From Psammoneis japonica (taxonomy: Eukaryota): a stretch of 64,000 nt of DNA. The notes under the pieces are model-generated. The model was not told the origin of the DNA. It did not search any database and saw only the letters and a list, made by a program, of their open reading frames with translations. The position numbers and the translations under genes are program-made. The stretch lies in assembly GCA_008632985.1 (NCBI GenBank), contig QPGO01000136.1, positions 1-64,000 of the forward strand, in the 5' to 3' direction. Shown one piece after another: positions 5,902 through 62,018 of the stretch (positions are counted from its first letter, which is position 1; every line of letters starts with the position of its first letter).

Positions 5902-6199
5902 TGGTGATGGCTCTCTCTCAAGCAACTCTCATTGCCAAGAGGCCAAGATCAAAGTCTCGCTCGCTATTGCGAGACCTGAGATCTTCGCAATGCCGGTACA
6001 ATCTGGAAAAAAAAAAAAAACAAAAAATTGGGTGTCGGTGTCGCCATGCGATGGCGCCACATGCAAGCAAGGAAAATCGCAGTGGCGGTCTGTCTGTACG
6101 ATAATTTCTACGCATATTTTGTACTTTCGTCCGTCCATACCACCTTCCGTCTGCGCCGACCAACCCGACTCCACGCCCATTTCAAACAATGTGGCTTCC

Positions 6200-22934: not shown

Positions 22935-23276
22935 AATGAGGCTAACAACTTGTGGAGCATACCAGTCAAAGGCTGCGTACGTATCGAATAGACCGTAATT
23001 CACAATGTTCTGATATCTGATAGCCTTCCTGGTGTTGCGCTATTTTCTGTGTTCTGTTCTGTCGCCCCCCGCGGTCGGCAGCCCGTGCGTGACGACTAGC
23101 TAGTCGTACGTAGGAGAAGTAATACGCGATACGTAGGTATTTAGAGTGAACTCGCATCTAACAGTTTCACCCTGTGTGATGATGTGCGATGCGGTTTACA
23201 AAAAATCAAAATGCTGCAGAAACAAAATAGTAGTTACACAGGCAAAACCAAAGAGGCAACGAATAACCTTCATGAA

Positions 23277-28899: not shown

Positions 28900-30397
28900 C
28901 TTTCCCGATTTGGCCAGGGATGTTTATGTCCCTGGATTTGGCATCATCAAAAACGGCATGTTGCACTTTTGATGTGTCTCGACTACATGGCAAACATCGT
29001 GGGGCTGACACATGTTTCATTTTGGGGTCTTCTTCCACCATTGTCACAAAGAGGTTGATGCATTGTTTTGGTTTCCGGGGTGGGGGGTGGTGGGGGGCTT
29101 TGGCTGTGACACACAGCACAAACAATCGCTTGCTGCCGCACCTTGACTTGTGGCTTGATTGCTTTGAAACATGGGCAACATCTGAGTGGCAGACAGAATC
29201 ACTGTGGCAAGTTCTTTCTGTGTTTTCTCATTTTAGACCATTTGAGTGCTTACAAAAGATGTTGTTTGTGTTTTGTTGCCACTTGAAAGTTGGGTTGGTC
29301 ATGTCGAGCAGCTGCTGACGGTCGGCTCTGCGATGTGCTGCATCTGTTTTTTCCTCACTTCATTTTCACCACAAAAGCACCCCCATTGAGGAGACTTTTG
29401 CTTGCTCTCACTCAGCAAGTTTGTTTGACCAAAAATTTCACAGTGTGTTGGTGGGCATGCAGCACTCTTGCTTTGCTTCCAGGGGCCTTGTGTGGCAGAG
29501 CCACACAAGGGTGCGCACAACACCAGCTTTTGACAGACAGACTCAAACAAAAAAGGTGCCCCAGTGAGCATGCTGTGCTTGGCTGAGCTTCAGAGTCATT
29601 TTGGTAAAAAAAAAACCTTCTTCCAGCCCAGGTGGGGCTGGGGGCTTCATGTCATGCTGGGTCCACAGAACTCTGCGCTCAAGCTTTGCAGCAAAACCAC
29701 TGGGCAGTGAACATGCAAGTGGCTGCCAAAAGAAAAAAGGTGATTTCACTTGACAAAAAACTCTCATGTGACAGCACAGCAGTGCAAGGCCCCACCTGGA
29801 GCATGGCATGTCAAAACTCACACACCCTGGAAGCTTCCCTTTTGTGTTTGTTTGTGAGCAGGTGTCTGATCTTCCTTGACCCTCTCTTCCTGCTCTACAA
29901 CTGTGCTGTCTTCACTGTCCAAGACATGTTTTTCCATGTCACACATCATTTTTAAAGCTGTTGGAGCAGGAGCAAGCTGCAAAGGAGGCAGGCCATCAAG
30001 TGCTTCATCCTTTTTGGGCATTTGCACCAACAGAGTGGTGCTTTCTGCATTTTCTGTGAGCAGCAAAGCAGCAGATGATGTGCTTGAGTGGCTTGTGGCT
30101 TTTGGAGTGTTTGCTGAAGCTGTGGTCACATTAGAGGCAATGAAAATGTTGCTGCAGCAACAGCTGCATTGTGCTGAGCCAAGAGCAGGCCAGCAGCAAC
30201 TCAAGTCTTGTGCGCTCTCCATTGCATGGTGTGAGCATTTGAGGCAAGAGGGGCATTTGAGGCTGCTGACAGCAAAACAGCCAGACCTGTCACCCAAAAC
30301 CCGTTGGCCAAAATTGTTGGAAAACTGGCTGGCAAGAGTTGTTGGGAAGCTGGAGAATCATCAGAAAAGAGCCAAAGCTGGCAAAAGTTGCTGGAAG
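28900..30397. other. Unclassified degenerate repeat-like DNA, depleted of TpA and CpG
   Basis: Same composition as the neighbouring transposons but no recognisable domain. Short imperfect repeats (CTGGCAAxAGTTGxTGG) occur near 30300-30397, where Copia A is cut. Confidence 0.4.
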
Positions 30398-33300
30398 AGG
30401 CATTGTTGTCTTTGCCAATGAGGGTGGCCTGTGTCTGGGGCACAAACAGCTCATTGAGAACAAATTGCAGGCACAGTGCCATCTTGCCTGCATTGGACAT
30501 GGCAATGTGCTCAGCCTCAGACAATGAGGTGGAGACCAGCATTGGTTGCACTCAGGTCTTCCATGCAAGAACAGCTGCACCAGCAAGAAGGAAAGCAGCA
30601 CCCACAACAGAGCAATGGTGGCACATGTTGACAGCCCAGTCAGAGTCCTTGCAGCCTGGAAGCTTGGTGGGAAAGGCTGCCTGTGGGGGGTTGTTGCATG
30701 CAATCATGAGGGAGGGTCAGAGGCAGGGGCAGAGGCACAAATGGCAGATGGTTGTTGGGAGTTGAGCACCAGCAGGTTAAAGCAAAATTTTCATGATTGT
30801 GCAGGTGCCTGAGCACTCATTTTACACCATTGCAGTGAGTTAAGCCAGGAGCAGAGACAAGCTGGCTGAGTTTAGCTGCAGAGAAACTGAGACCCACATG
30901 AGCAGTTGCTGTGGTGGCCCACATGAATTCACCAACAGCTTTGTGGTGGGAGAAGCCATGGAGGTGTTGCAGGGCTTTGGAGGCCTTGTTGCCTGCCAGC
31001 AGGGTTTCTTCATCTAGAGCTCTGGTGTGGGAGGCATTGCCAGGCACAGGAATGGTGGATGGATGAGGAGCTGAGTCATCAGCATGGGACTGGAGAAAGG
31101 GACAGTTGGCCAGTGTGCCCTTGACATGGGAGGTGCTGTGCAGGCAAATGCAATCACAAGTCTGTTCAACATTGCACCCATGAAACAGTTTCAACAGACT
31201 GCAGTGCTTGGCATTGTCGCCAGCGAGGTGTTGGTCCACAATGCTGCACATGCAATTGATGCATTTTGTCTGAATCAGCAGTGATGGCAAAGTCATCCAC
31301 CTGACAGAGGAAAAGGACCTCTCTTCACTGCATTGATGGCTCCACTGCAAATGCATGGCTCAGGGGTGGCAGGAGCAAGCAGCAGATGTTTTCACAGGAT
31401 GATGACATCAACATGGATGTTCCCCAGTCAAGGAGCTTTGAGGTGACCTTGAAGAGCCTTGCACACTGGCAAAATGTGATCCTCATGGGTGGGAGGGTGA
31501 CCAAGATGTTTGGTTTGCCAGCTCTGAAACACCTCATCCACACACATGCACAACATTCACTTGGGGGGCAGGGCCTCAGCAAAGGCATTGCTTGCATCTG
31601 CACCATGCACTTGTTGTTCTTCAAAACAGCAAGCTCAAAGAAGAGTCATGTGCTGGGATGCTCAACTGACACTGCACAGGTCTGATCCAAAGTTTGAACA
31701 TGACCAGAGCTGGGGCTGCCATCGCACATGCCATGAGCCTTTTTGGTGTGGGACTTGTCATTCTTGATGAGATGTGACCATGTCCCCAGTTGAACACAGT
31801 GGCACCCAGTGGAGCTGGGGCTGGAGTGCCAAACATGCTTTGGTTGTTGCACATGCCCAGCTGAAGAAATTCACTGGCTCCCCAGTCACCCCAATCCTCC
31901 TTGGTGAGGAATTTCTGGTGGGTGAGTGTGTGCATGGTTGGAATGGTGGGTTTGTTGATGGACTCCACAGTTGACATCAGATGTGGTTGGTCTAATCCAG
32001 AAAGAGTTGTGAGAGACCAGCAGAGTCAAGGGCAGGCAATGAGCAACCACGTGCAAAATGGAGCATCACAGAGTCATCAAGGGAGGCAAAGTCTGTCACA
32101 GGGTGAGAGTTGACCAAGACAAGACAGCCACACTTGAGCTCAGAATGCCATTGTGGTGTCCACACAGTGTGAGAGCTGGGGCCACAATGGCAGAGGTGAA
32201 GATGACTGCAAGCTGAATCACAGTCAAGTTTGAATCCAAACTGCAGATTTGGGTGCCCTTGGCAACAGGACATCAAAGGATCATTCGAAAGGATTGAAAG
32301 ACATGGCCACCACAGCAACTGAGTCAGAGCAGATGGGGTCTTCAGGACAAGCAAATGAAGCTGTGGCTGCACCACAATTGAGTCATGCACTGTGAAATCA
32401 CTCTCCTCAAGGGACAGGGCCTGGACAAGACAGAGAGGGGGGCTTGAGGACAAGGGTTCACCAAGTTGCAATGGGGGGCAGCCCACCCATTGTTGTGCCA
32501 ATTTTGGAGAGGGAGAGGGTGCAATCTGCTGTGTGCCCAAGTCAAACAGTGGTCGGGGTCCAGGAGGATGCACCAGTTGGGTGAAGTGAGCCTCATCAAA
32601 GATGGCATGAGCAGTGGTCTTCTTGCATCCTGAAGCAGCACCAGCATGTTGGGTGTTGCAACCCATGGCAGTGTGACCCACAAACATGCCATTGAAGATG
32701 TGGTGGTCCAGCTCAGCAGGTGGAGATCCAGGACAATGGGGGTGAATGTGTGAGAGCCAAAGGCACAAAGACATGCAAGGTCAGGGAGCTCACCCTTCCA
32801 TGCCATGCCAGATGGGGTGTTTTGTCAATCGTGGAGTGCCGACAGTGGTTCTTCAGGTGCACAGCATGTTGGAGTGCACTGGACCAACACATCACAGGAA
32901 GTCCAGAGGACTGTGGCAATGCTTGCGGCACAATGCCAAATGTTTCATTTGGGATTTCCACTTGACCATTCTGACATGGAGCATTGGAGCCAGTTCCACC
33001 ACATGTCAGTGGGAGAGACAAGCCTTTCAAAAATGTCTTCAGAGCATGCAAGTTTGCCACCTTGGTCAGTGCAGATGGCACGGTTGCCTGCTGTGCATTT
33101 GTGATGATGAAGGAAAGCATTGACAAACTCAATGGGGGGATTCTTGCTTGGTGTCAAAAACACCCATGCACAGCAAGTGCAGGCATCCATGGCAAGCAGG
33201 CAGGAGTTGCAGCCATCTCTGGGTGTTGGATGGCATGCTCAACTTGATTTTTCTTCTTGTGTTGCATCTTCATCTTTGGCTGCATGTCAGGACTGGAGGC

Positions 33301-34620
33301 ATGCATGAAGCCAAAGTCCATGTGAAAGCATGTTGCTGGGAGGAGGTGGGAGTCATCCTGAGGTGGACCCATGGGGAAGCATCAATGATGTGCATCATTG
33401 CAGACCTCACAGGACCAACAAGGGTGTGAATGAGCCTCAGCAGTTGGCAGCACTCCTTTGGCATGACAACACATGTGAGGCAGTTGCAGCCAAGATGGTG
33501 GTGCCACAGCTCACTGGTGGCTGCCCTTTTTAGAAAGTGCAGCTCTGGAGTGACACCCACAACATCCATGCACTTGGGAGGGGAGCAGCCATGATGGGCA
33601 GGAAATGGCTGGGGACATTCATGCTGTGCCCAACTTCCAGAGTCTCAGGGGCATGGACAGCAAGAGTGTGCAGGGCACAGTCAAGCTCAGAGTGAGCACT
33701 CATTGGCAAGGGGCACATTTGGGTGGAGCCAAGGCATGAACCACAGTCTGCTCACTTGCACCATTGGAAAGGAGTGCTGCAGCATCTGATTGTGATTTGC
33801 AATGGCCAGAATGCCATGACCAGTGTCCAGGCAATGACATGAGTGACATTGGCTGCACTGTTCTGTGGATGAGCAACAAAAATGATCTGGTGAAATGAGT
33901 GTCTCACCGAGACTGGGACAAAAGAACATTGGCGCAGATGATGTGTGCTGTTGGGCAGGGTGCACATTTCTGGGCAACCAAGGAGGGAATCAGAGAGTCA
34001 GCAGAAGGCAGAGATGAACATGCATCCCAGTCATCCACCCTGCTGTCATCAGCAAGTCACTCGCTGCTGTGCCAAATGAGATTTGTGGCCAGCTCAGGCA
34101 AAATCTGGGGTCACATCAGAAGCAAAGAGTTGTTGCTGCATGGCAGCATCCTCCATCACAAAATCAATGAGATCATCTGAGACATTGGCTGAAAAGGAGC
34201 AAGCAGCAGGGTGATGACAGCCTTTGTGTTGTTGGTTGTGGGATTTCCATTTTGAGATGTTGGGTGACACTTTCTCAGCATTGTTCTTGATGAAGTCTGT
34301 TGCATCCAAGCTGGTTGAGAGCAGCTGCAATGACTGTGTCCACAGGGCCCCACACACATCACACATCCTTGTGGGTTTGAAAAACCATGGGCTGTTGGTT
34401 GGGTGCAGCAGAGTGACAATCACAAGAGAGGCAGCCCCAAAAAACACTCAGGGAGCCAGGTGTGTCAGTTGGAGCGGTGAGTTTTGGATCAATCTGCATG
34501 GCAACAGACACCAGTTGCAGATTGTGGGAGAGTGGAGCCCTCTCACCAAACTCATTGAGGCAGCATTTGAGCAGCACTGTAGGTTCACACATGCCAGTGG
34601 GTGTTGCAACAAGAAATTTG
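30398..34620 (-). mobile_element. Degenerate Ty1/Copia retrotransposon A, truncated within RNase H
   Basis: Copia domain order on the minus strand: pre-integrase ELWHHHLG, integrase FHMDFGF...ICTDQGGKLA...QNGQVE..N, RT (KKAHGMCDGSP) and RNase H (STSLSEAEHIAMSNAGKMAL...KDNNAS). Confidence 0.85.
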
Positions 34621-34624
34621 AGGG

Positions 34625-36289
34625 ACTTGTCCATGTGGGCACCACTGCAGGCCGTGAGAAATTGGCCCCTCATGCCACACATGAAGAGGCCCACTTCACT
34701 CAAGCAGTGCGTCCCCCCGGTCCTCAACTGTTGTTTGACCTGGGCACACAACAGGTGACCCCTCCTCCACCTGTTGCACCAGACCTTCAGCCAGCTCCAT
34801 GCTCACCACCAGCCTCTGACAAGCCACTCTCAGACCCCCCCGGATCAGCTTGCTGCAAGGCCTCCCACTTGGTGAAACTGCGATTTCTCCATCAGAACCA
34901 TTTGCTGCTGCTGCGGCTGCTTTCCAGGCCCCTTTGTCACCAGTGTCCTTGGATGCCATGGCTGCAACAGCAATGTCCTTTGACCTGCATGATGATTCAT
35001 TTGATGTTGTGCTCCCTGACAAAGGCTCCCGCAAACCACACTTTGGTCTCAAGTTCGATCTGGACGCCAATCATCACCGCCACCGCCTCCGCCTCCATCA
35101 CTGTCGACCTGGCTCCAGAGCTGCCCCCACGGTGGCACTTCAAGCTGCCAACATGAGCATGTTTGACATCCACAAACTCCCACCCAGTTCATGATTTTGC
35201 CTCTTTGGACGCCGCCATTGACCTCATTGGCTTGGATGCTACGGCCATCATGCTTCGATTTGCACATGACTGCACGTCTCCCTCCCTTGACTCCACTGGA
35301 CTCCCTCAACTGTTCCTGGATCAAATCCAGGACATGCGCCACCAGCTTGCATCATTGAAGGAACCCACCATTCCAACAATGCACAAGCTTGCACATTGGA
35401 AGCTCCTGACACAGGAGGACTGGCCCGACTGGGAGAACAGCGAGTGCAAACAGCTGGACATGTGCAACAACCAAGGAATGTTTGGCAAACTGACACCTGC
35501 CCCGGCTGGTGCAGCAGTGCTTAATTGGGTTTGGTCACACCTCACAAAGAACAACTTGGATCACACCAAGAAGGCGCATGGTGTGTGTGATGGCAGCCCT
35601 TGGTCGGGCCATGTCCAAACACTTGACGAGACCTGTGCTGCCTCTGTGGAACAACTGAGCATTTGTCCATTTTTTGCTTTGGCCGCCCTGAAGAACAAAC
35701 GGGCACATGGCACCGATGTGAGCAATGCATTTGCTGAGGCACCACCACCAAAAACAGCACTTCTACATGCGAGTCAACAAAGTTTTTCAAAATTGGTGGA
35801 CGAATCATCTTGGCCACCCTCCCATCCCTGAAGGCCATGTGCTCCCTGTGCTCAAGGCTCTCCAAGGACACCCAGAGTCACCACGTCTGTGGAACAGGCA
35901 CATTGATCAAATCATCTGCACCAAACTTGGTCTTGCTCCTGCACTGCCCATGAACCATGCATCTGCAGCAGCACAATTGATGGAGAACACGTGCTGTTCC
36001 TGCGACAACAGATGACTTCGTGATTGCCACTGACAGCGATGAAACCTGCAACATCATTTGCAACATTGTGGACAATGACTTGGCTGGTGGTGAGATCAAA
36101 CATCAAGGCTTGCTCACACTGTTCCTTGGCTACAATGTCGAACAGACCCAAGACTGCATCCGCCTCCACAGCACTTCTTCGTGCATCAAATGGATTTTGA
36201 AGAACTGCCCATTCCTTGATGCACCGGATGAACACCACCACACTGTGGCTCTCCCCATGCCAGGCAATGCCTCCCACACAAAAACTCTT
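34625..36289 (+). mobile_element. Degenerate Copia B (same family as A, opposite orientation), segment before the nested insertion
   Basis: EEAHFTQAVRPPGPQLLFDLGTQQ, WENSECKQLD, KKAHGVCDGSP, DVSNAFAEAPPP and KALQGHPESPRLW. The reading frame PGNASHTKTL stops at the insertion of element C. Confidence 0.85.
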
Positions 36290-36534
36290 TGACAGGATTT
36301 GAACAAGATTTTAGTTTGTCACACACAATCATGTGTGCTCTCAGTTCCGCGCACGTCACGCGATGTAGTTTGCTTTCGAGCCACACGGCTCACAGGAACA
36401 ATGACAGCAGTGCCGATGTCATGACACCAGTCTTTCGGCTCCTGTGACGGTCTCTGCACGGAGACTCATCTGCTGTTTAGACAGCAGAAAGGAGTCACTG
36501 TTTTCTTCCACCCAGTCATCTTCATTTTCTGTCA
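36290..36534 (+). repeat. 5' LTR of element C
   Basis: TGACAGGATTTGAACAAG...CATTTTCTGTCA, homologous to 42884-43129. Confidence 0.95.
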
Positions 36535-37325
36535 GATTGACAGTCTTGCTCTTTGTTGTCCATTGAGCATTCACCATCGTCATCGAGAAAAAATTTTCGA
36601 CGACGCGCACCGTTGGCGGTGGAAGCACATGTCCACCTTCTTCACTGCTGGACACTGGATTAAATCCACACATTTGGATTTATCCGGCACCTCCCATCAT
36701 TGGACACATTTGTTCAACAGATGTTTGTTTGGCCAGGAATTCCCGAATTCTCAGACATCCGAGATTCTGGATTCCTTGCAGCGGATCCTGCTAATGCACC
36801 CGCACGTGTCCACGTGCACATGGCACAAATCCCTGACTCTGGCTCTGCTCCACGCACACCAAGTCTACCGCCTCGTATCTGCATCGGATTGCTGGTCTTC
36901 TGCAGTCCCACAAGGTCCATGAGGACAACTGTGAGAGGAAGCAGTTTGCGATTGCAGCCTGCATTGGGGCGAGGGTGCATTTCCCATGTTTGTTCGTCCC
37001 TCCACAGCGCCAAATTGGCCGGCCTGATCGGGTCATCCAACCGACATAAAATGAGAACGGTTTGGAGTTCTTGTCCACCTCTAGTTGGCTTGTCAGCAGG
37101 GGTTTTTAACCCGTTGCTCTGCTCTCAGGCTGCCCAAAGCATCGCCAGCTGCAGGTTCGGACGTGCCGGCACAACTCTGCGGACCGAATGGGAAGCTTGG
37201 CACTTAACTGCAAACGGGATGTCACAGCCCGGCGGCTTCTGACTCTTGAGATAGTTCAAGACATCAAGTCAAGATTCAAGTCAAGTTTCAAGTTGTTTCA
37301 AGCTCACCCTCCCACTGGTTGCAAC

Positions 37326-40300
37326 ATGGTTCTCACCAGGCAACAACAAATCGATGGCCTTGAGCACATTCTAGGCACTGTTCTGAATCAAGCCACAGAC
37401 AGTCCATTGTGCTCCGCTCTCAACATTGATGGAACCGATTCACATCAGGACCTTTTTGCTTTTACTCCGACGCAACTGGATGCCCTTGTGCACAACGATG
37501 GCACCAATCAGAATCCCTTGCCAAGTGGTTACAAAGCACAGACAGCTGTGCTGATTAGCCTGCACATGGCAAAAGCGCGCGGCGGCGTGGATGTCAGCAA
37601 CAACCCTAAATTGTTCACTCACGAGGAGTTCACTGACTGTTGTCTTAGTCCTGAGCATGCAGCATCCCTCTCCATGGGCACAGCGCCATCTGCTCCCACC
37701 CCTGGCTCTTTGCCACCCAAACCACGTGACCCTGTGCGTGACTTTAAACGAGGCATCAAACGTGACCCACTCACCTTCGCGACTCTCAAGTCAGACAAAC
37801 AGTGGCACACGTGGCACACCTCCATCATCACACAGGCCCGCTCCCAGGATGTCGAACTCGTTCTTGATCCGACGCACAAGCCCTCTGCAGCTGAGGACAT
37901 GGCCCTGTTTGATGAACAACAGAAGTGCATGTTTGCCGTCTTCGAACAGATCTTGCAGAATGACAAAGGCAAGGCGCTTGTTTGTCAACATGTCGACTCC
38001 TCTGATGCTCAAGCGGTGTGTTGCGACCTTTCCAAGTGCGCCCTCACTTCCACTCGCGCATCCCTGGAGTCCTCGACCCTTCTCACGCACCTCGCCACTG
38101 CTCACCTCGGTGATGGCACCTGGAAGGGATCCACCCATGCCCCCATGCTTCACTGGCAGGACCAGCTCCGCAAGTGCGAAGCTCTCATCCTGGGTGCGGA
38201 CCATTTCTCTGCTGGCCAGAAACATGTCATGCTTGAGAACGCCACTCATCCTGTTGAAGAACTCCGTTTGGCAAAGAATCAAGCTGATCAGTTCCGCATG
38301 CAGAATGGAAAGGGTCTCTCTTGCGAAGAGTGCTGTGGACTTCTGCTTTCTGCTGCAGCACAGTGCAACAGCATGTTCACCCCCAAGACCACTCCTCATG
38401 CTCCACGCCGTGCCATCTACAAACATGACCTGGTTCCCAACGACCCTGACGATGATGCATTCTTCGACATCGACAGTGATGTTGACGTCATCCAAGCTTG
38501 TGCCGCACAGACCCGCGGCAACTCCCTCACCAGGGAACAATGGCGTCGCATTCCGCTGGACCATCAGCACATTTGGGACACCTTGCCCCAGTCCACCAAG
38601 GCCATCATTCTTGGCTCACGCAATGCCCACACCGGCAACTGCCATGACTCGACGATGGTCAACCTGCACGACCTCCGTCTTGGCAGCGACGGTGACGTCA
38701 ACTTGTCTGCCAACACCCATGACATTACATCGGCACTCGCACCATCCGACGCCACAGCCGATGCAGCTGATGCCAACCCCATTCTGGCTCATCTCATCAG
38801 GCACAAGCCCCTGCCACCCGGCAACTTGCAATGTCTCCTGGCACCTGAACGGCCTCCTTCCGCCCGTTCCGGCGAGAAACCGCCCGGATCTGCACCTTCG
38901 CCCGCTCCAACGCGAAGCCCATTGACGCTGACATTGAGATCAATGGCCACAAACACCATCGCGTCAACAACCACAATGTTGTCTGCTCTGCCTCGACCCA
39001 CAAGTCAACTCGCAAAGGTGCTCTCGTGGATCGCGGTGCAAACGGTGGCATTGCCGGTGATTGTGTTCATGTCATTGCCCACACTGGTCACCAGGTTGAC
39101 GTCCAAGGCATCGACGACCATCAACCAGTTGACATCCCCATTGTCACTGCCAGTGGTGTCATCTACATGCAATGCGGCCCTGCCATTGCCATCCTTCACT
39201 GGTGCGCCTGCACTGGAAAAGGGAAGACGATGCGCTCTTGTGGCCAGCTCGAGTGGTGCAAGCACGATGTCAACGATGGGTCCATCAAGGTCCCCAATGG
39301 TCTGCAGCGCATCACCACCATTGATGGATGCATCATTCCCATTGACGTTAAAGCCGGCCTCCCGCACATCACCATGCGCCCGCACACCAATGCCGAATGG
39401 GACACTCTGCCGCGCATGTCATTCTCACTGGTGATGACACATGGGATCCATCTGTCCTTGACCACCAGTTCACAGACAATGAGACATGGCACGATGCCAC
39501 GTCTGACCTCCAAGATGACCCGACTGCCAACCTCTTTGATGAGTTCAGCAACTGTCATCACCCCCATGTCGTCAACAATGCCATGCTTGCCGACTCCGTC
39601 CTTGATGATCACCTGCTCCCGACATCTGATTTCTTCTACGAATGCCATGAGCGCGAACTCAATCCCAAGGATCCTGATTTTGAGTCCCTCTGCACCCACT
39701 TTGGCTTTCTCCCGAAGGACACTGTTTGCCGCACTTTTCATTGCACGATGCAGCATGCCCACATGCCAGCCAGCACACACCTGAAAAAGGTGCACAAATT
39801 GCCCAACCCGGCTCTCAATGTCCACCAACGCAATGAACCCGTTGCTGCTGACACGGTCTGCTCTGATGCCCCTGCCATTGACTCTGGCTGCACCAGCGCC
39901 CAGCTCTTTGTCGGCATGCACCAAAACTGACAAAGAATTTGTCAACACCCTCAAAGACAACATTCGCACTCGCGGTGCCCCGTCCAAGCTCATCAGCGAC
40001 TGCACTCAGGTTGAGATCAGCAACAAGGTTCTTGGCATCCTTCGTGCCCTCTTCATCTCTAGTTGGCAAAGCGAGCCTCACCACCAGCATCAGAATTTTG
40101 CTGAACGCCGCTGCCAAACTGTGAAGACCATGGCCAACACTGTCATGGATCACTTCGGGTCCCCGGCTTGCACCTGGCTGCTTGCCCTGATGTGCATGTG
40201 TTTTGTGCTCAACCACACGGCGTCCACCAAGCTCCACTGGCACACCCCCACCGAAGTGCCATCCGGCTCTACTCCCAACATCAGCCCACTCCTCCACTTT

Positions 40301-42896
40301 CAATGGTGGGAACCCATGTGCTGCCACCTGGATGATTCTGACTGGCCATCCGAATCTCGTGAATTACGTGGTCGCTTCGTTGGCATCGCCGAACATGTTG
40401 GTCACCAAATGACATTCAAGATTCTTTCCGATGACACTCAGAAGATTCTCTGCCATTCCAACGTGCGCTCCGCCTGTGATCCGTCTGCTCCAAACCTGCA
40501 TCTTGATCCTCCTGATGAGAAATCTGCTGACCCTGTCATTAAATCCTGCCACGACTCCAAGGATTTGCCAGATTCACCAGATGGGGAGGTGACCAGGATG
40601 CCCAAAAATGCCGGTCTTTGACCCCGAGGACATCACAGGATGCACCTTCCTCATGAAGCCACAAGAGGATGGACAACGCCACAGAGCCCGCATCGTCAAA
40701 GCGGTTGAGGACCATGACTGGAAAATCGGAGGCAGTCCTGAACTGGTCAAGTTCATTTGCTCCGTCAACAATGACGAATGCAAGGAAGTCCCAGCTCACA
40801 ATGACATCATGCACCACATTGAGCAAGAAGACGAGGACACCACTCTCTGGAAGTTCTGACGCATCGCATCGCACGAAGGACCATTTCAACCCCATGATTC
40901 CTCATGGAAAGGCTCAAGCTACAACGTCATGCTTGAGTGGGAGAATGGGGAGATCACGTCCAAACCCCTTGCCATCATTGCCAAGGATGACCCCGTCACC
41001 TGTGCCATCTACGCGCGTGAGCACGGCCTTCTAGAAACCAAAGGATGGAGACATTTTTGCAAGACAGCACTTTGTCAGAAGAAGCCATTCTGCATGGCCA
41101 ACCAAGCCAAGTTGGCTCCTTTCGCACCGCGCCATGACACAAGTGCGGGTGTGAAGTGCCACGGGACTACAAGCATGCCATGGCCCTTGATGAGCGCAAC
41201 GGCAACCGCAAGTGGGGAGACGCAATGGACCTCGAGATGACTCAGCTTGATGAGCACGAGGTCTTCCACAACTGCGGACACCACGAGGATTCCAGTGCTC
41301 CATCAGGACACAAGAAGATCCGGGTGCACCTCGTCTACGATGTCAAACATGACGGACGGCACAAAGCAAGGCTTGTTGCCAATGGACACCTCACAGAAGT
41401 GCCCGTCGACAGTGTCTGTTCCAGAGAGGTGTCTCTCCGTGGCCTGCGAATGATGATCTTCCTGGCCGAACTCAATGAACTAGAGACCTGGGCCACTGAC
41501 ATTGGGAATGCCTGCCTTGAAGCTGCGACCAAGGAGAAACTGTACATTGTAGCAGGCCCCAAGTTCGGCAACCTGGAAGGACACATCCTTGTCATCCACA
41601 AGGCCTTGCATGGACTCCGCAGCTCCGGCCTCAGATGGCATGAATGCTTTGCCGATTGCTTGCGTGCCGAAGGCTTCTTTCCATGCAAAGCCGAGCCCGA
41701 CATCTGGCTGCGCAGGAATGGTGACCACTGCAAATGCATGGCAGTGCATGTGGATGACCTGGCCTTCGCCATGAAGGACCCCCAGGCTTTTGCAGACACC
41801 CTCATGGAGAAGCACAAGTTCAAGCTCAAGGGCACTGGACCATTGGAGTTCCATCTTGGCTGCGACTTCACCCGTGACCCAGACGGCACCCTGTGCCTTG
41901 CTCCCCACAAGTGCATCGAGCGCATGGTTGACAACTGCGTGTGCCTCTTTGGGGAGAAGCCCCGCACTGATGTGCTTTCACCCCTTGACAAGGGTGACCA
42001 TCCTGAGATCGACACCTCCGAATTGCTCAAACCAGACGGCATCCACCAGCTCCAATCCTTGATTGGATCCCTGCAATGGGCCGCATCTCCAGGTCACATT
42101 GACAATTGCTGTGGCTGTCATGTCCCTGTCTGGCTTTCGTGCAGTGCCCCGTCAAGGCCACCTGGACCATGCCAAATGCATCTGCGGATTCCTCTCCAAG
42201 ATGCGTCATGGTGCCCTCCAAGTGCGCACCGAGGAGCCCGACCATTCGGACCTCCCCAAGCCCGTGCATGACTGGGCTCAATCTGTGCATGGGGAGGCAG
42301 AAGAGCCACTCCTGCAAGATGCACCCAAGCCGCTTGGCAAGTTCGTCACCACCACACACTGCGTTGATGCGAACTTGTTCCATTGCGTGCTCACTGGATG
42401 CTCTGTCACCGGCATCCTCCATTTCCTCAATGAGTTTCCGGCTGATTGGTTCTCTAAGAAACAAGCAACAGTTGAGACTGCTGCACATGGATCTGAGTTT
42501 ATTGCCGCAAGGACGTGCATTGAGCAGATCATTGATTTGCGCATCACTTTGCGTTGCCTTGGCATTCCCATTCGTGAAACATGTTGCATGTTTGGGGACA
42601 ACAAGTCAGTTGTGGACAGTGCTGCCACCCCGCACTCCAAGTTGCACAAGCGACACACTGCCCTCTCATTCCATTGTGTGAGTGAGGCGATTGCCTCTGG
42701 TTTCCTTGAGTTTCATTTCATCGAAGGTTCCCACAACCCAGCTGACATCCTCAGCAAGCATTGGGGTTGCTCCCAAATCTGGAACCTCCTTTGTCCTCTG
42801 ATGTTTTGGAACTTCGATCCCGAGGCTTTCAACCAATCCGACTTCAAATCTGTCACTGTTGACCCCTCAAGCAAACTGGGGAGTGACAGGATTTGA
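37326..42896 (+). pseudogene. Mutated gag-pol polyprotein of element C
   Basis: gag (DFKRGIKRDP), protease (DRGANGGIAG), integrase (QSEPHHQHQNFAERR), RT (ATDIGNACLEA, KALHGLRSSG, AVHVDD) and RNase H (ETAAHGSEF, MFGDNKSVV, NPADILSKHWG). Contains frameshifts and stops. Confidence 0.92.
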
Positions 42897-43129
42897 ACAA
42901 GATTTTAGTTCATCACACATGATTGTGTGTGGTGCTCTTAGTTCCACGCGTCACGTGATGCAGTTTGCTTTTGAGCCACACAGCTCACAAGAATGACAAC
43001 AGCAGCGCCGATGTCATGACACCAGTCTTTTGGCTCCTGCAACGGTCTCTGCACGGAGACTCATCTGCTGTTTAGACAGCAGCAAGGAGTCATTGTTTGC
43101 TTCCACCCAGTCATCTTCATTTTCTGTCA
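42884..43129 (+). repeat. 3' LTR of element C
   Basis: Homologous to 36290-36534. Confidence 0.95.
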
Positions 43130-44065
43130 CTCTTGATGAGGCCCCCACACCCGCCAACAATGCCGAATCCCGCTGACTCCAAAACCAGCATGGCTTCTCC
43201 TGCTGCAAAGCCGCCAGTGAACTCACATGGGCCATGGTCACCACCCGCGTGGACCTGAGTTTTTCAATCACCAAGCTGAGTCAATTTGGCTCCAACCCTG
43301 GCTCCGCTCACTGCGAAGGTGTCAAGGAAGTGCTCCGTCATGCCCACCGACATCCAGACTTTGGCCTGACACACTGGCGCCCCTGCTCCAATGAGTCCCT
43401 GCCATGCGCACCCCCACTGCTGCCAGTCACCGCACTGCACAACTGGGTCACCCAACCACCACAGGCGGCTTCTCCCACAGAACTCACTGGATGCAAAGAC
43501 TCTGATTGGGCTGCTGACATCCGCCACCACCGCTCCATTGCTGGCACAGCCTTCCCACTTGCTGGCACCACCATTGCTTGGAAGACTCAAGTGCAACCCT
43601 CTGCACCCACATCACCCTTGGAAGCAGAATTCATTGCTGCATCGGGTGCTGGCAAGATGGCTCTGCACCTTCATTCCATCCTCGATGAACTGTCCCCGTG
43701 CCGCAAACACAGGCCACCCTCATCTGCACGAGGACAATGATGCATCCCGGATGATGGCCAATGCCAGCCAACCCACCAGATGGACCCGCCACATCGATGC
43801 TCATCATTTTGCACTGCAGGGTTGGGTCGAACAAGATCTTGTGCGAATGGAGCGGATTGACGCTGCCACGAACTGCAGCGACACACTCACCAAGAACCTT
43901 CCGCACATTCTTTTCTTTCAACATTTGGAGACACTCACTGGACGTCATCCCCCATCCTGTGTTTTAGATGGCAGCAACGATGCGCCACTGTGCTGTTCAC
44001 CAGAAGAACAATGCTCCCACAGTGGGCGGGCTCACAAATCTCCCAGTGTGTGTGGGGGGGGGGTC
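43130..44065 (+). mobile_element. Copia B continued (end of RT, RNase H, G-rich polypurine tract)
   Basis: Resumes with LDEAPTP...WAMVTTRVDLSFSITKLSQF, DSDWAAD, LEAEFIAASGAGKMAL, EDNDAS, TRHIDAHHFALQGWVE and NCSDTLTK. A G run lies at 44054-44063. Confidence 0.88.
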
Positions 44066-44109
44066 TCAGTGGCTGCGTGTTGTTCCCACATGGATGCAGG
44101 GATCTCTGT

Positions 44110-44184
44110 CAAGTTTGAGCGATTGCTCAAACTTGCGCAAGTTTGAGCAAATGGGGGTGCAAGTTTGAGCAATTGCTCAAACTT
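44110..44184. repeat. Cluster of AAGTTTGAGC half-sites forming two palindromes
   Basis: AAGTTTGAGCgattGCTCAAACTT at 44111-44134, a single half-site at 44139, and the perfect 24-bp palindrome AAGTTTGAGCAATTGCTCAAACTT at 44161-44184. Confidence 0.9.
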
Positions 44185-44773
44185 TTAGTGGTGAAAGCCA
44201 AGACAGGAAACCTCAGTCATGACCGTTAAAGTTTACTGTGTGTGGTGTTCGCTCATGTCCGTTGGGATTCCGCGCACGCCCGCGTTTGAGCAGTTTTCCC
44301 TCATGCGATGGTGCTGCACGCACGCTGCAGAACTCCCTGTCCATCCATCCGTACATGCCGTAGAATAGAGTTCGCGATGATTCTGTAGGAAAACCTCTCT
44401 ACTGCTCTAGCTAGAGAGTCAGTAGAGAGTAGTAGTAGATGTCCAACGAAATTTTATGTGCAGTTGGTCGCAGCTGGCTGTCGTCTTCAGTCTGCCATAG
44501 CTGGCTAGAGTGGCCACTCAATCCCACAGTAGGCCATTGCTCAGAAACGTTATGGCATATGATAGCTACCTGGGACCATCCATGACCAACAAAAGTGACC
44601 ATGAGCGTCGGTTGACACGGCGCATGCATACAAGTAAGCTCTTAGCATCCCTACATGGACTTGCGAGGAAAGTATTTGGGTGACAGTATGTCCTCTCACA
44701 AGGGTACGAGATGGGAGTGGCAATGCTTGTGAGACAGACATCACCCACTAAGGACTTGATGGAATGGTATCTG

Positions 44774-49288: not shown

Positions 49289-49775
49289 GGTTGAGTGATC
49301 AGAGCAAAGGATTCCAACAACTAGTAGCTCTAGTTGGGCTGCGAATATAAGTCGTCAAGCATGAATAGAGTTTCGCGTTTCAGCTTTTCTTTTTCCCGGT
49401 GGTAGGCAGGGGGGAGTGTGCATCCCGCCCCTTCCGTGGCCGTGAGGAGTGAGTCGTCGCATGTAGACTAAGGTACTGTACACGGTACGTAGGTGTTTAT
49501 CGTGAACGCACACCACCTACATACAGTATGATATGGTACTATACCGATGAGGGGGGCTACCCCTCACGTATCATTAGTGATGATGCCATTTTCAATTTAA
49601 AGCACCACGCACCACAGCAATATTAACACAATGTGAACACGGGCGAGATGGGGATGATGCTTCCTGCGAACAGACAGTAGCTTGGAGACCCAATGGGCGA
49701 CGGTGGCTCACAACCAACAGATGATATTCAACTAATAAAGCACTACCGACGAGCAACGGAGACTATCTATCAAGA

Positions 49776-51990: not shown

Positions 51991-52088
51991 CACTTTCTCT
52001 CTGAATCCTGCACTTTTGACTGTCGTTCACAAAACAAAGGATCCCACAAGTCCTCAGCAACGGCGCGGCCTCTAGCTAGATGACGAGG

Positions 52089-53260
52089 TGTAGGCGAGAA
52101 TTTCTCTCTCGTAGGACTTGCAATTCTTGCTCAAATCAAACTGCTTCACCGCGTTCTCTTTTCCTTTGACGCACACCTCAAAGATGTCGCCATTGCGGCC
52201 GGTGGCCAAATGCCTTTTGTCGCATAAATCCTCAAAAGGGACATGAGGGACAAAGTCCTGCTTCACCAATGCAAAGTGCATCCCAAAGATTGACTTCGGG
52301 GTCTCCATTCTCTCGAGATTTGGTGAAACTGTCTCTTGAAGGTCATTGCCGTCGAACGATGTGACTCTCTTGGATGCCACACTCGCTTGTTGGATGTCTT
52401 GAAGCATTTGCCAGGAATGCATCTGACAAAAAAGACCCCAGCAACCATTCTTTGTTGTCTTTTTGGACCCAGTGCTGTCAGCTTCATCATCATTTTCATT
52501 CTCATCGCCATCGCCACCATCAGTGTTGTCATCCCCAAGTGGGGACAGGCGCTGCTCTGCTTTGTGCTTGGGTTTTTGGTTTTGAAACACATCCATCACT
52601 GCATCTTGTCATGATGTTGCCACCAGCTGCACTCAGAATCAAGAGGTTGTGGCCAGCTTTTGCTTCCACCATCAGTGCTGGAAGAACATTGCCAACCCCT
52701 GGATCCTCTGATTCTTGCACACAAACAATGTGTCACGAAGACCCACAACTGCAACTTCGCCAGCCATGCACGCTTGGAGAGGTTCCCAAACAGTGTCTGT
52801 CAAGAGTGCTTTTTTCATTTTTTCATCACACATGCATCCATTGTGGGAAACAGATCTAGAGATTGAATCTGGAACATTTCCTGCAACATGACCACCTGTG
52901 ATTCCAAAGGGTTTGTCGAGCATCTGCTCTGGCAGGTGGTGTCGACCGCTTCTCTGCTCCTTCATCTCGCTGCAAGCAGACACCTTTCCAATGAAAAATC
53001 ACAGTGGTGAGACAGATCTGCTGACACTTCTTCTTGTGTCATGCACCATGACAAGGGAACATTGGATCTCATCTCATCAACAAACTGTTTTCTTTTCACA
53101 TGCCAGCAAGCATTTCTGGCTTTGTTTTCCTCAGCAGCAGTCCACTGCAGCTCAGCACTTGAAGGATCACAAAACTCTTTCGAAAAGACATCACATTCCT
53201 TCATGCCATCAATCTTCTGTTTCAAAGCTTGTGCAGCCATTGCTGCGTCCATCCGTGCTG
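52089..53260 (-). pseudogene. Second copy of the kinase-like pseudogene, TpA-depleted
   Basis: FEDLCDKRHLATGRNGDIFEVCVKGKENAVKQFDLSKN and AQALKQKIDG match 6200-7733 in inverted orientation. Confidence 0.7.
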
Positions 53261-53415
53261 TGTGCCATGGTGAATCCAAAATCAAAATTTTGCCGCGGGG
53301 TTGGTGTTTTTGTGCAAAAGTGTGCAAAAGGTGAGTTCTGTCACATGACGGTGAGAGAGACTTTGATCACAGCCTCTTTGGCAATGAGAGTTGCTCAAGA
53401 ACAGAGCTGTCACCA

Positions 53416-56218
53416 ATGATGCTGTCCTCGAGAGCTTCCATGTACACTGGCTGTGGGTTTCGACAAAGGGCCGCAACAAAAGTGGGAGTCGTTCTCGTCC
53501 ATCCCATCCAACTGGTGTCACTGCCAAATTCCAGTGGCATTGCAACTCGACAACTGCCATTGAGCCACAAGATGTGGCGCATTGTTTTGACTGGACGACA
53601 TTGCCGGACTGGGAGCTCTGCTGATGATTCGTTCAACTTCCCACAGAAACAAAAGAAGAAAAAGCGAGTTCAATGGAGGCCACCAAATTCAAACAATCTC
53701 AACAGGGTTTCACAAGTGCTGGACGTTCATGAGGCTCACAGGGCAAAAATGAGCCCAAGAGATGTTTCAATGTGCTGGAACTGCATTTGCAAAATTACAT
53801 TGCACAACAGGCAAGAGCAAAAAAGCATTTGAGAGAACGAGCAGCAGCTGCGGTGCCTGATCGAACATTCTGCTCAGACCATCAGAGGCTTTTGCAACAA
53901 GTTGCTTGCAATGGCTGTTCACAGCATCTCCAAAATGTCAAAAATGTGCAGGTGCACAATGGACCGAGATGCATGGAACGCTTTGGAGGAGAGAACACTT
54001 TCTGTTTTGTGTGACATGTCTCCAACAGACATTTCCAAAATTGCGCGGGCATTTGCCACGGTTTGGCATGCGTCAAAGACATTGCTTGACAAGGTTGCTC
54101 ATGTCTCTGCTGCAAAGACGAGCAACTTCAGCCCTCAAAGCCTGGCGAACACGACGTGGGCCTGTGCCACAGTTGGACACTCAGCACCGTTGCTCTTTGA
54201 TGCTGTTTCCAAAGAAGCAATGCCAAGATTGGGCACTTTCAACCCTCAAGCAATGGCGAACACAGCATGGGCCCATGCCACAGTTGGACACTCAGCTCCA
54301 TTGCTTTTTGATGCCATTGCTGAAGAAGCAAAATCAAGCTTGAGCAGCTTCAACCCTCAAGTGACAGCAAACACGGCATGGGCCTTTGCCACAGTTGGAC
54401 ACTCAGTGCCGTCGCTCTTTGATGCTGTTGCTGAAGAAGCAATGCCAAGATTGGACAATTTCAACCCTCAAGACACAGCAAACACGGCATGGGCCTGTGC
54501 TGCCGTTGGGCACTTGGCACCGTTGCTTTTCGATGCTGTTGCTGAAGAAGCAAAATCAAGCTCAAGGTGGCACGAGACGAAAATTGTGAAAATCGTTTTC
54601 GCGCGCATTTTCATTGAAAATCACAGGAATCAGGAATCTGTCATCAGACAAAAGCATTGTGTCTTGTCAGCGAATCACATGGGTCAGCATGCGCGCGATT
54701 GCAAGTGTGTCGCTCAACGGAAATTCCGTTTTGGCGAATCGCTCATTTGTTGCCTCGTTCTCTGTGTCGTCTTTGAAAGGCCATGAAAGGCACTTCCAAG
54801 ACGAAAACACTTGTGAATTCAAGCATGCAGACACTTCTCTGCTGTCTCAGCTTCCTGCCGAGTGAAAGAAACTGCACCTTTTGACACTTTTTCCTGTCCA
54901 AGCATCTAATTCAAAAACTCAGGGCGAAAAACCAGGACCTTTCTTTTGCTGACAGGAACATCTTGTTGACACAATCTCGAAACTTGCAGTTTCTTTCCAC
55001 AGGCAAGTCAAGGAGACACCAACTGAGAATGCAGGACACTTGGTTGAAGGAAACGCAGCATTTGACAGCGTCCTGGGACAAGCCGAAGTGCGGCCATCGC
55101 TTTGTGTAGAAATGTGTAGAAATCACACCAGAAAAAATTCCAAACAATTTTCGTCTCGTGCCACCTTAAACCATTTCAGCCCTCAAGTGATTGCAAACAC
55201 GGCATGGGCCCATGCCACCATTGGGCACTTGGCCCCATCACTTTTCAATGCTGTTTCCACAGAAGCAATGCCAAGGTTGGACAATTTCAATCCTCAAGAC
55301 ATGTCAAACACGGCATGGGCACATGCCACTGTTGGTCACTCGGCGCCGTCGCTCTTTGATGCCATTGCTGAAGAAGCAATGCCAAGATTGGACAATTTCA
55401 ACCCCCAAGACATGTCAAACACGGCATGGGCCAATGCCACTGTTGGACACTCAGCGCCATTGCTTTTTGATGCCATTGCGGAAGAAGCAATGCCAAGATT
55501 GGACAATTTCAACCTGCAAGACACAGCAAACACGGCATGGGCCCACGCCACAGTCGGACACTCGGCCCCGTCACTTTTTCATGCCGCAGCTGAAGCAGCG
55601 GTGTCAAAATTGGGCAGTTTCACCCCGCAAGGCCTTGCAAACATGGTGTGGGCGCACGCGGTTTGTGACCAATGCTGTGACATTTCAATGGGAGATTCAT
55701 CGCCGTTTGCAAAGGCCTTCAGCTCAAATGCTGCCTTTTTGTCTGCAGAGAATTTAGGGCAACTCCATCAAGTGCGCCTTTGGTGTCTTGAGCATGGAAG
55801 TTCGCTGCACCTTGATTACAACTTACAACAGAGGTGCCGAGCGGCTTTTGTTGAAAAACAAGGCAATCCATCCAAGTTGCAAAAGGATGTTGTCAAGACT
55901 CTTTTGGACCTTGGACTCGACCCAAAGGAAGAATTCCGGACAGATGTGGGTTACAGCTTGGATGCAGTGGTCAGGTATCGCAATCGAGACGTCGCCGTTG
56001 AAGTGGACAGGCCAAGCCACTTTCTTTCTGATCGATCACCGACTGGGTCTATGATTCTAAAACATCGCCAGCTTGCGAGATTGGAAAATTATAGGGTGGT
56101 GTCGGTGCCTTATTGGGAGTGGAATGCTGTTGCAGAAAAGGACTCGAATACAAAGTCAGTTCGAGAATGGCGCAAAAAGTACCTGTTGGAGATCCTCGAT
56201 CAAGCGATTGAAAGTTAG
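53416..56218 (+). pseudogene. HPR/OPR-RAP copy 3 (10 repeats): hypermutated, with a nonsense codon and a MITE insertion
   Basis: The N-terminus matches copy 1 (MMLSSRAS...). CGA->TGA stop at 53830-53832, Y->H/C and I->M/T changes throughout, an insertion at 54566-55165, and the RAP motif changed to EVDRPSHF. Confidence 0.9.
54566..55165. mobile_element. 600-bp non-autonomous DNA transposon (MITE) with perfect 22-bp TIRs and a TTAA target; Kolobok-like GG...CC ends
   Basis: GGTGGCACGAGACGAAAATTGT (54566-54587) and ACAATTTTCGTCTCGTGCCACC (55144-55165). Flanks are TCAA (54562-54565) and TTAA (55166-55169). A corresponding repeat in copy 1 reads TCAAGCTTAAAC without an insertion. Confidence 0.92.
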
Positions 56219-56914
56219 GTTGAAAAAAAAAAGACGAAGGGTTGTCTATCAGCTTCTTTCTACCGGTACTGCGCACTGATGCGAAAGAAACGTTCGTATC
56301 ACAGTTTTTGTTTGTGGCCAAGTAGCCAAGCTTGTCAACCAGTCCAGGCATCGAGTTTGGCTTTACACTCCTGTATGATGGAATGACTCTCATCACAGCC
56401 TTACAGCATTCGTAGCATACAGACTTGATGAAAGGTTCGTCGGGCTCTGTCTGCTCCTCTCTACTCGTAGTAGACATCATGACATGACATTAGCATGCAA
56501 AGCAACCTCTACCTGCAATCTTCATCTAACGTGAGCAAAGCAGCTGAAATGAATCGTTCTCATCCTGCCTATCGTCCGTTGAAAACGGGGTGGCTTAACA
56601 CTCAACACAAGTTTTCACCTTGCCATTCAATTGTCCAACGTAGTTTCACAAAAATGCTGTCATATTGTCAAATGGTAATTGCGCCAACAGTTTTCTCAAC
56701 GGAAGACGCGACGATGTTCAAAGCTGTGCCCAAAGCGGGACACCTGAGCTCTTCAATTCGAACGGACGGTTATGACTCGCAGAATAGTTTCTGCGCCAAG
56801 CTGGACACGTCAAACACTTTGCTTTCCCTGCTGACTCGATCCAGCCAAATATCAATCATACCGATGATGAAAAAGCAAACATTTCCAAAGAATGAGAACA
56901 AGGTGGAATAGCCC

Positions 56915-61760: not shown

Positions 61761-62018
61761 CCAAGCACAGGGGAACCGACCCACGGCGGACAGATGCCGG
61801 TTCATCCGACGCCCGACACGCGCATGCAACGAGCGCAATACGAACGACAACGCCGCCACATCATCACGACGACATTGAAGCTAGCCGACTGCAGATGTTG
61901 TAGCCCTACCGGTATGTTCGATGCGGCTGCTTCGAAATGATGGACAACGTGTGGTAGTCTCACCTTCCTATTTGCCAGCTAAACAACAACACTCTCGACG
62001 GAGACTGCATCAACAGTC

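Follow-up and report, generated by a model that had tools for sequence, protein, structure and literature searches.

The window analyzed here, a stretch of 64,000 nucleotides from the diatom Psammoneis japonica (assembly GCA_008632985.1, contig QPGO01000136.1, positions 1 to 64,000 of the forward strand), carries five discrete blocks from which the dinucleotide TpA has been almost entirely lost. The largest of them is a 15-kb island holding a nest of Copia long terminal repeat (LTR) retrotransposons. Another takes in an upstream element together with the larger part of a host gene copy with FAST_1 and RAP domains (copy B), whose paralogue elsewhere in the window (copy A) has kept normal TpA. 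The features of the locus are collected in Table 1, and their composition, their sequence divergence, and their counterparts in reads and relatives point to hypermutation directed at TpA.

The observed/expected ratio (o/e) of TpA was scanned over the window in steps of 500 nt, and the islands (23,274 nt pooled) were compared with the remaining 40,726 nt. At this resolution five blocks show TpA o/e values of 0.00-0.17 (1-2000, 6501-7500, 29001-44000, 52001-56000, and 60001-61500), and their flanks lie mostly between 0.4 and 0.8. Pooled, the islands hold 78 TpA (o/e 0.06), whereas the remainder holds 1,535 (o/e 0.55); at that ratio one would expect some 700 in the islands. The original prediction had placed five nearly TpA-free blocks among ordinary flanks, and its coordinates hold. 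CpA and TpG are raised (o/e 1.73 and 1.75, against 1.21 and 1.24 elsewhere), the GC content is 51.6% against 47.8%, and CpG is lowered to 0.41, against 0.94, while the remaining 12 dinucleotides show no change (0.88-1.20 in the islands, 0.89-1.19 in the rest). The longest TpA-free run measures 1,538 nt, the median TpA spacing being 19 nt; runs of 509-634 nt occur in the block at 59820-61760. All five blocks are discrete, with edges resolved to ~50-300 nt. For example, on the left of the 15-kb island TpA is dense up to 28878, after which it appears just at 28925, 28984, and 29234; on the right it appears at 43965, 44186, 44227, and 44234, and is dense from 44352 on.

Loss of TpA and loss of CpG coincide in these blocks and can nevertheless be separated. 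The earlier note was right to treat the two as distinct, since the windows starting at 38501 and 54501 have TpA o/e values of 0.05 and 0.03 with CpG at 0.88 and 0.93, but it understated the CpG depletion of the same blocks, which falls to an o/e of 0.00-0.24 across 29001-35000. Outside the Copia elements the content of the islands is hardly recognizable. In the non-Copia islands, 92 open reading frames (ORFs) compared with Pfam gave nothing at or above the curated cut-off and three chance-level matches. No Pfam match was obtained for the 6 ORFs of block 1-2009, which has no recognizable coding content, nor at the curated cut-off for the 17 ORFs of block 59820-61760, where a weak ZSWIM1-3_helical match (E 0.008) was the only one. 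The 46 ORFs of the nest at 28900-36284 had no Pfam match either, and a homologue search with the ORF at 34218-35153 yielded none at E<=0.01.

Table 1. Features of the window, in order of position (RT, reverse transcriptase).
Feature	Position	Strand	Evidence and remarks
TpA-depleted block, window edge	1..2009	.	TpA o/e 0.0-0.11, CpG 0.43-0.56; 8 TpA before 2005
FAST_1/RAP gene copy A, unmutated comparator	3478..5928	-	Pfam FAST_1 E=3e-18; TpA normal; ~84% identical to 53353-56188 (gene homology of copy B)
TpA-depleted block upstream of copy A	6330..7580	.	Homologous to 52103-53250; 842-nt TpA-free run 6698-7540
Old degenerate transposon nest	28900..36284	.	TpA o/e 0.00-0.17; deepest TpA and CpG loss
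Target-site duplication CTCTT, 5' copy	36285..36289	+	Read from sequence
5' LTR of younger Copia (TGACAG...CTGTCA)	36290..36534	+	LTR-LTR alignment; LTRs 245 nt
Internal region of younger Copia	36535..42883	+	Polyprotein homology 37326-42818, tblastn with 17 long relatives
In-frame RT segment RVT_2	41138..42097	+	Pfam E=9e-25; HVDD for YVDD at 41747
3' LTR of younger Copia	42884..43129	+	LTR-LTR alignment
Target-site duplication CTCTT, 3' copy	43130..43134	+	Read from sequence
Older degenerate Copia, continuation to island right edge	43135..44340	.	pol C-terminal remnant to ~43704; TpA o/e 0.04
TpA-depleted block: upstream element and most of FAST_1/RAP copy B	52100..55750	+	TpA o/e 0.0-0.17
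Copy B 3' end just outside block	55751..56219	+	Partial leakage
TpA-depleted block between two divergent FAST_1/RAP genes	59820..61760	.	TpA o/e 0.03-0.08 over 60001-61500

In the 15-kb island, the segment 36290-43129 is a Ty1/Copia LTR retrotransposon, as seen from the TG..CA ends of its LTRs, its 5-bp target-site duplication, and its RVT_2 domain. This younger Copia interrupts an older element, of which a faint pol remnant has been found by tblastn at 35421-35943 (+); the high-scoring segment pairs of the older Copia end at 43671-43704 (E 1e-7 to 2e-4). The polyprotein of the younger element is broken by six frame changes and passes through reading frames 1,3,2,3,1,3,1. Copy number was read from X1, a public run whose contigs were assembled from reads separately from the window assembly and which may be the same sample. 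Word depth in X1 reaches 5,500-61,000 over the younger Copia, against ~58 for single-copy sequence, which marks a very high-copy family. Across 30.2-34.6 kb the depth is ~58-60, and in the X1 reads the part of the island from 28.9 to 35.9 kb is single-copy at >=90% likeness. Many rearranged joints were also seen in X1 over window positions 35877-43484, including an LTR-to-LTR joint (36348>42956), and suggest solo-LTR or deleted forms. The copy load of this family is unusually large, though the family appears dead in the copy described here.

The two LTRs of the younger Copia record how its sequence has changed since insertion. Aligned over 248 columns, they differ by 6 CA<->TG double differences, 2 sites with TA versus CA or TG, 6 sites with CG versus CA or TG, and 4 other substitutions, and they share 6 CpG. 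Given the 6 shared and 6 half-lost CpG, about one of the discordant sites is estimated to be expected from CpG; most discordances therefore go back to an ancestral TpA that became CA in one LTR and TG in the other. Because the LTRs were identical at integration, the 6 CA<->TG differences show that the decay took place in place, after integration.

This result bears directly on the possibility that the changes were made in RNA. ADAR and APOBEC editing of retroelements acts before integration and on one strand, leaves clustered deaminase-type transitions and, in the case of ADAR, prefers a 5' U. Under such a scheme, A-to-I hyper-editing of retrotransposon transcripts by an ADAR- or ADAT-like enzyme preferring 5' U would have been fixed by reverse transcription and integration. 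It would suit a best-characterized target that is a very high-copy LTR retrotransposon, many copies of which seem TA-poor alike, and a 5'-U preference of ADAR is cited in the discussion of a recent preprint on the chlorarachniophyte Bigelowiella natans (bioRxiv 10.64898/2026.01.13.699255). However, 6 sites show alternative CA and TG outcomes between the LTRs of one copy, and the outcomes of the two strands are about equally frequent. When pre-integration sharing was tested, the LTRs were not alike, and the outcomes were not strand-uniform, with His:Cys at 3:6 in the RT and TG:CA at 32:19. The block extends well past the ends of the younger element, and DNA that is not a retroelement has been hit as well, both the host FAST/RAP copy and non-coding flanks; the element upstream of that gene has decayed independently at two loci. 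The decay of LTRs and duplicate, together with the damage to a host gene copy, speaks against a main role for RNA or cDNA editing ahead of integration. RNA editing as the sole cause is largely refuted, and we consider this explanation very improbable.

The direction and specificity of the change can be read from an inverted segmental duplication of 4 kb, in which 3508-7713 (minus) pairs with 52103-56188 at ~84% identity. Copy B of the FAST_1/RAP gene (53353-56219, +) lies inside the TpA-poor block up to 55750, and Pfam recognizes its FAST_1 and RAP domains on two ORF pieces. Fifty-three TpA of copy A could be aligned to the depleted part of copy B, where 25 read TG, 18 CA, 2 TA, and 8 otherwise, so that ~96% of the TpA steps are gone from the depleted gene copy. 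The opposite change, which is that of the repeat-induced point mutation (RIP) of fungi, was looked for in the depleted part of the pair, and 0 cases were found of TA in copy B opposite CA or TG in copy A; the direction contrary to RIP had been foreseen in the earlier note. Per strand-site, A>G change amounts to 0.42 at TpA, against 0.06 at ApA, 0.10 at CpA, and 0.07 at GpA, and C>T change to 0.26 at CpG, against 0.05-0.07 in other contexts. Among the 79 CpG compared in the pair, 35 persist in copy B, where another 41 have become CA or TG. TpA has thus been lost about 4 times faster than CpG (2/53 TpA retained versus 35/79 CpG); by arithmetic from the pair counts, its per-site rate of loss exceeds that of other A>G change at least ~20-40 times. 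With 43 of 53 TpA converted to TG or CA and A>G change low in other contexts, the view that a single transition at TpA acts on either strand, and that CpG decay is not its source, has been upheld.

The same pair weighs on a passive regional bias, in which heterochromatin lacking mismatch repair, or served by error-prone polymerase eta (WA>WG), would simply decay slowly. The blocks are indeed CpG-decayed too, as in long-silenced methylated DNA, and TpA is mildly low even outside the islands, at the o/e of 0.55 given above. But the ApA rate of 0.06 beside 0.42 at TpA leaves no WA signature, and polymerase-eta-type repair, one of the candidate mechanisms of the original prediction, is disfavoured on the same figures. 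Divergence at sites other than TA and CG is not higher in the depleted part of the pair (0.05-0.10) than in the normal 3' part (0.05-0.11), the edges of the blocks are sharp (~50-300 nt), and the process in B. natans is, according to the preprint, episodic and ~1000-fold over background. A passive bias is accordingly quite unlikely.

Beyond the edge of its block, in the 3' flank at 55751-56219, copy B shows A>G change at TpA in 9/37 strand-sites in the direction A to B, against 1/23 from B to A, and this raised rate looks like leakage into the flank. Sites discordant between CA and TG number 24 in 1,002 positions of the upstream element, 13 in 1,682 of the gene part, and 0 in 449 of the normal 3' part. 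Both copies of the upstream element are TpA-poor, and its 24 discordances indicate that they decayed independently at the two loci after duplication. TpA is normal in the gene part of copy A and in three more FAST_1/RAP paralogues of the window. Copy B is a host gene copy, not a retroelement, that has been caught and is being destroyed by the TpA process. As for the gene family itself, five paralogous FAST_1/RAP genes are present, at 3478-5928(-), 49725-51788(+), 53353-56219(+), 56915-59044(-), and 61983-64000(+). They are made of tandem 111-nt (37-residue) repeats, and the cluster has the look of a protein family of the organellar RNA-binding type that is expanding locally.

The original prediction had called the process repeat-targeted, and this part of it is unproven: copy A and the three paralogues have been spared, the island is single-copy from 28.9 to 35.9 kb and, as the preprint reports, one of the B. 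natans targets is single-copy. The sparing of copy A and the three paralogues argues against simple homology sensing.

Within coding sequence the loss of TpA is seen as a loss of tyrosine. In the in-frame RT, the columns scored were those with at least 80% Tyr among 120 homologues. Of ten such columns none keeps Tyr, 3 reading His (YVDD to HVDD included), 6 Cys, and 1 Leu, while the other conserved in-frame RT columns are identical in 153 of 161 cases. The five motif changes named in the earlier note have all been confirmed, three of them through CAT codons (YVDD to HVDD at 41747, KALYG to KALHG at 41609, and YGSEF to HGSEF at 42486) and two through TGC (GNAYL to GNACL at 41513 and HWGY to HWGC at 42768). 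Over the whole polyprotein, the residues opposite Tyr of the 17 long relatives are 6% Tyr, 31% Cys, 23% His, and 15% Phe, and replacements of Arg by His (166) and by Cys (144) bear the mark of CpG decay. That note had supposed that transposons are disabled through their Tyr codons. The conserved Tyr have indeed been wiped out, but a purpose is not borne out: Tyr codon loss is a by-product of the dinucleotide rule and gives no sign of being its aim. Another consequence is that TA-free DNA can contain neither TAA nor TAG, which leaves TGA as the sole stop and yields long overlapping ORFs in several frames. Such ORFs are found on both strands of 29000-44000 (e.g., 37110-39434, 37555-38925, and 37791-38615 on the minus strand). 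Gene callers will therefore annotate long spurious "proteins," poor in or free of Tyr, in such blocks. A protein among the 120 homologues, P0209, looks like one of these, having lost Tyr from 10 of its 14 conserved Tyr columns (to Cys in 5, His in 3, and other residues in 2) and holding 0.9% Tyr overall.

Confirmation in reads had been asked for in the original prediction, and it has been obtained in part. X1 contigs with a word depth of ~58 cover 29773-35209 and reproduce it over 5,443 nt except for 6 differing letters and 6 gaps; X1 is not a second isolate, and it may be the assembly's own sample. Four of the 6 substitutions are A>G or T>C from window to contig, and the six, lying in a fully converted block, may be allelic or strain differences. 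The agreement rules out an artefact of assembly or polishing. An error of sequencing, base calling, or assembly at modified bases, or alternatively selection for avoidance of TA, is in our judgement scarcely credible as the origin of the pattern. The possible identity of sample leaves some room for a technical error, but the separately built contigs agree, the alternative CA and TG outcomes that separate the two LTRs, and likewise the paralogues, are fixed differences that arose in evolution, and P0209 and two environmental loci, L066 and L019, carry a like signature. Six frame changes and the lost Tyr of a catalytic motif speak against selection for TA avoidance.

Relatives of the element show that the depletion is no family trait. 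Among 80 related Copia loci from metagenomes, 78 have a whole-locus TpA o/e of 0.43-0.97, so that low TpA does not characterize the lineage. The replacement of Tyr by His or Cys was found in L066 (1-1168; TpA o/e 0.06) and L019 (1-2561; 0.33), and the controls L001 and L005 are without it. L019 is partly converted, with a CpG o/e of 0.74, and on these ratios it may be a young case. L066, L019, and P0209 are environmental Copia relatives from other public assemblies and show the same signature at differing stages.

The TpA that survive in the islands are not a random sample of contexts. RTAY makes up 3 of 78 survivors against 496 of 1,534 normal TpA, and YTAR 37 of 78 against 223 of 1,534 (chi-square p = 8e-16). 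Compared with the 1,445 normal TpA at distances above 300 nt from any island, ATAT has 0 survivors against 105, ATAC has 1 against 263, and TTAA is enriched 4.6-fold. Survivors are biased to YTAR (TTAA, CTAA, CTAG), and a T stands two bases 5' of the step in 56% of them, against 25%. In L066 the four surviving TpA are CTAT or TTAT, which does not match the effect seen in the window. An effect of the flanking bases on survival is possible as an observation limited to this window.

Taken together, we give a probability of about three in four to a hypermutation that acts on DNA, is targeted to regions of silenced and mostly transposon-derived sequence, changes A:T>G:C specifically at TpA, and belongs to the kind described in B. 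natans. In this process, silent blocks of transposon-derived chromatin would undergo mutation where the DNA sits, A:T pairs turning into G:C at TpA alone and giving TpG or CpA according to the strand hit. A TadA/ADAT2-like deaminase recruited to silenced DNA might convert adenine to hypoxanthine in 5'-TpA, and hypoxanthine would then be read as G at the next replication. Enzymes of the TadA/ADAT2 type prefer a 5' U or T, a point argued in the B. natans preprint as well, and deamination of adenine by such an enzyme is the favoured chemistry, at perhaps even odds if the wider reading is right. Tyr codons would become His or Cys, the stops TAA and TAG would vanish, elements would die without gaining stops, and neighbouring host DNA such as FAST/RAP copy B would also be caught. 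The recruiter could be repeats, small RNA, 5-methylcytosine (5mC), or histone marks. What the data show is the signature with its direction and dinucleotide specificity, the sharp block edges, the overlap with CpG decay, and action in place following both integration and duplication; the enzyme, its recruitment, and a role in defence are deduced. The silence of the blocks is itself deduced only from their CpG decay; a nested Copia is seen in one of them, and the others are without recognizable content.

Several observations weigh against this hypermutation or limit its share. For the Copia family, the comparison of the window's element with other copies in X1 covered 40 of 261 differences, and about 0-2 of the 25 best supported restore TA. 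The TA-poor state thus seems common to many copies, and some of the depletion may have been passed on when copies that had already mutated were amplified. The TG and CA outcomes (32:19) are not clustered by strand, a runs test giving 22 runs where 24.8 were expected (z = -0.86), and there is no strand bias or clustering of the sort that would indicate a single-strand deaminase. The flanking base does not predict the strand hit either: sites predicted to give TG gave 13 TG and 9 CA, those predicted to give CA gave 8 TG and 7 CA, and 14 were ties. In the partly mutated L019 the survivor-context effect is not significant (RTAY 20% versus 33%, p = 0.14). Finally, the likeness to the B. natans process is, as it stands, one of signature alone, and that signature would be identical if thymine were the altered base, because TpA is palindromic and a T>C change in it looks the same as an A>G change. 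In that event T in the TpA of silenced DNA would be modified by a TET/JBP-type enzyme to 5-hydroxymethyl- or 5-formyluracil (5hmU, 5fU) and mispair with G. Recognition of a duplex site would fit the lack of strand bias and clustering and the unpredictive flanks, and 5hmU of dinoflagellates prefers TpA. To our knowledge, however, mutagenicity of the 5hmU/5fU type sufficient to remove ~96% of sites has not been established, and evidence for such a modification was found neither in this analysis nor in the main text of the B. natans preprint. We regard the thymine-side route as improbable, if less so than any other alternative to the DNA-level change at adenine.

The claim that the process is undescribed has to be withdrawn, for the same signature has already been shown in B. 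natans (bioRxiv 10.64898/2026.01.13.699255). In mutation-accumulation lines of this species, two silent regions of integrated viral DNA, of which one is single-copy, took up 231 of the 302 nuclear single-nucleotide mutations. All but one of these 231 are A>G or T>C, and these 230 lie without exception at TpA, at a rate of ~6e-7 per site per generation in some lines only. The genome holds 124 clusters poor in TpA and rich in CpA+TpG, and TpA-depleted coding sequences are enriched in RT and DDE domains. An ADAT2-like protein has been proposed there as a DNA adenine deaminase, as yet unproven (Mettrop et al., bioRxiv 10.64898/2026.01.13.699255). The two cases have in common the A:T>G:C change at TpA only, giving TpG or CpA by strand, the discrete blocks and their TpA-poor, CpA+TpG-rich trace, the fact that single-copy DNA can be a target, and a direction opposite to that of RIP. 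They differ in lineage, B. natans belonging to Rhizaria and P. japonica to Stramenopila, and in what is observed: a near-saturated fossil trace in the diatom (o/e 0.06) and measured new mutations in B. natans, where the insert from a nucleocytoplasmic large DNA virus has an o/e of 0.45. Targets in the diatom comprise LTR retrotransposons along with unidentified non-coding DNA and one copy of a host gene, against integrated viral DNA (of such viruses and virophages) in B. natans. The strong co-located CpG decay and the possible flanking-base effect are seen in the diatom window, and the main text of the preprint mentions neither CpG nor flanking context, nor diatoms (bioRxiv 10.64898/2026.01.13.699255). 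No report of TpA>CpA/TpG hypermutation in diatoms was found in literature searches. On this comparison the kind of process would already be described, in one preprint of 2026, and the diatom case would add a new major lineage.

Other known systems resemble the pattern in part. RIP in ascomycete fungi changes CpA to TpA (C:G>T:A), creates stop codons, and lowers GC. It has in common with the present case dinucleotide-specific transitions, transposon inactivation, leakage to adjacent DNA, and strong skew, whereas here TpA becomes CpA or TpG, stops are removed, and GC is raised; moreover, RIP mutates all copies, and here one member of a duplicated pair has been spared. Diatom DNMT4 enzymes are related to RID and are described as of unknown function (PMC9998398). 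An A:T>G:C change is not accounted for by an enzyme resembling a cytosine methyltransferase. Decay of CpG driven by 5mC is present in the same blocks, as CG>TG/CA at the 41 of 79 sites of copy B and as Arg>His/Cys in Copia, but it cannot remove TpA or Tyr codons and is here slower and separable. With respect to ADAR and APOBEC editing, the differences are those already given: LTRs diverged in place, both strands hit, and non-retroelement DNA included.

Another gene of the window, apart from the islands, codes for a PIF1-HRDC helicase (23145-25439) whose best named relatives, at 51-58% identity, are in Pseudo-nitzschia, Chaetoceros, and Seminavis. A tandem duplication of ~305 nt, 94% identical, lies in this PIF1-like helicase gene at 23500-24122 and corresponds to a pair of HRDC domains that precede the PIF1 helicase core on its N-terminal side.

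A wider and tentative proposal, which we hold to be less likely than its negation, is that a defence by TpA adenine deamination is ancestral to the SAR supergroup (stramenopiles and rhizarians) or widely shared in it, is tied to cytosine-methylated silent chromatin, and would hit any such DNA, host gene copies included, thereby shaping the genome composition of diatoms and the birth and death of their genes. Over the B. natans case, the diatom adds proof of action in place, a host gene copy among the targets, a co-location with CpG decay from which TpA loss can still be separated, and a possible effect of flanking bases. Diatoms count among the leading primary producers, and we know of no control of their transposons other than 5mC and histone marks. 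If the interpretation is right, the process would be a mirror image of RIP outside fungi, and a second, mutagenic layer would act in place on silenced DNA in diatoms, having also hit a neighbouring host gene copy. Together with the Bigelowiella result of 2026, it would be a candidate for a widespread eukaryotic system of genome defence or editing, no longer confined to one species, and a natural, possibly DNA-acting, TpA-specific A-to-G activity would be there to look for.

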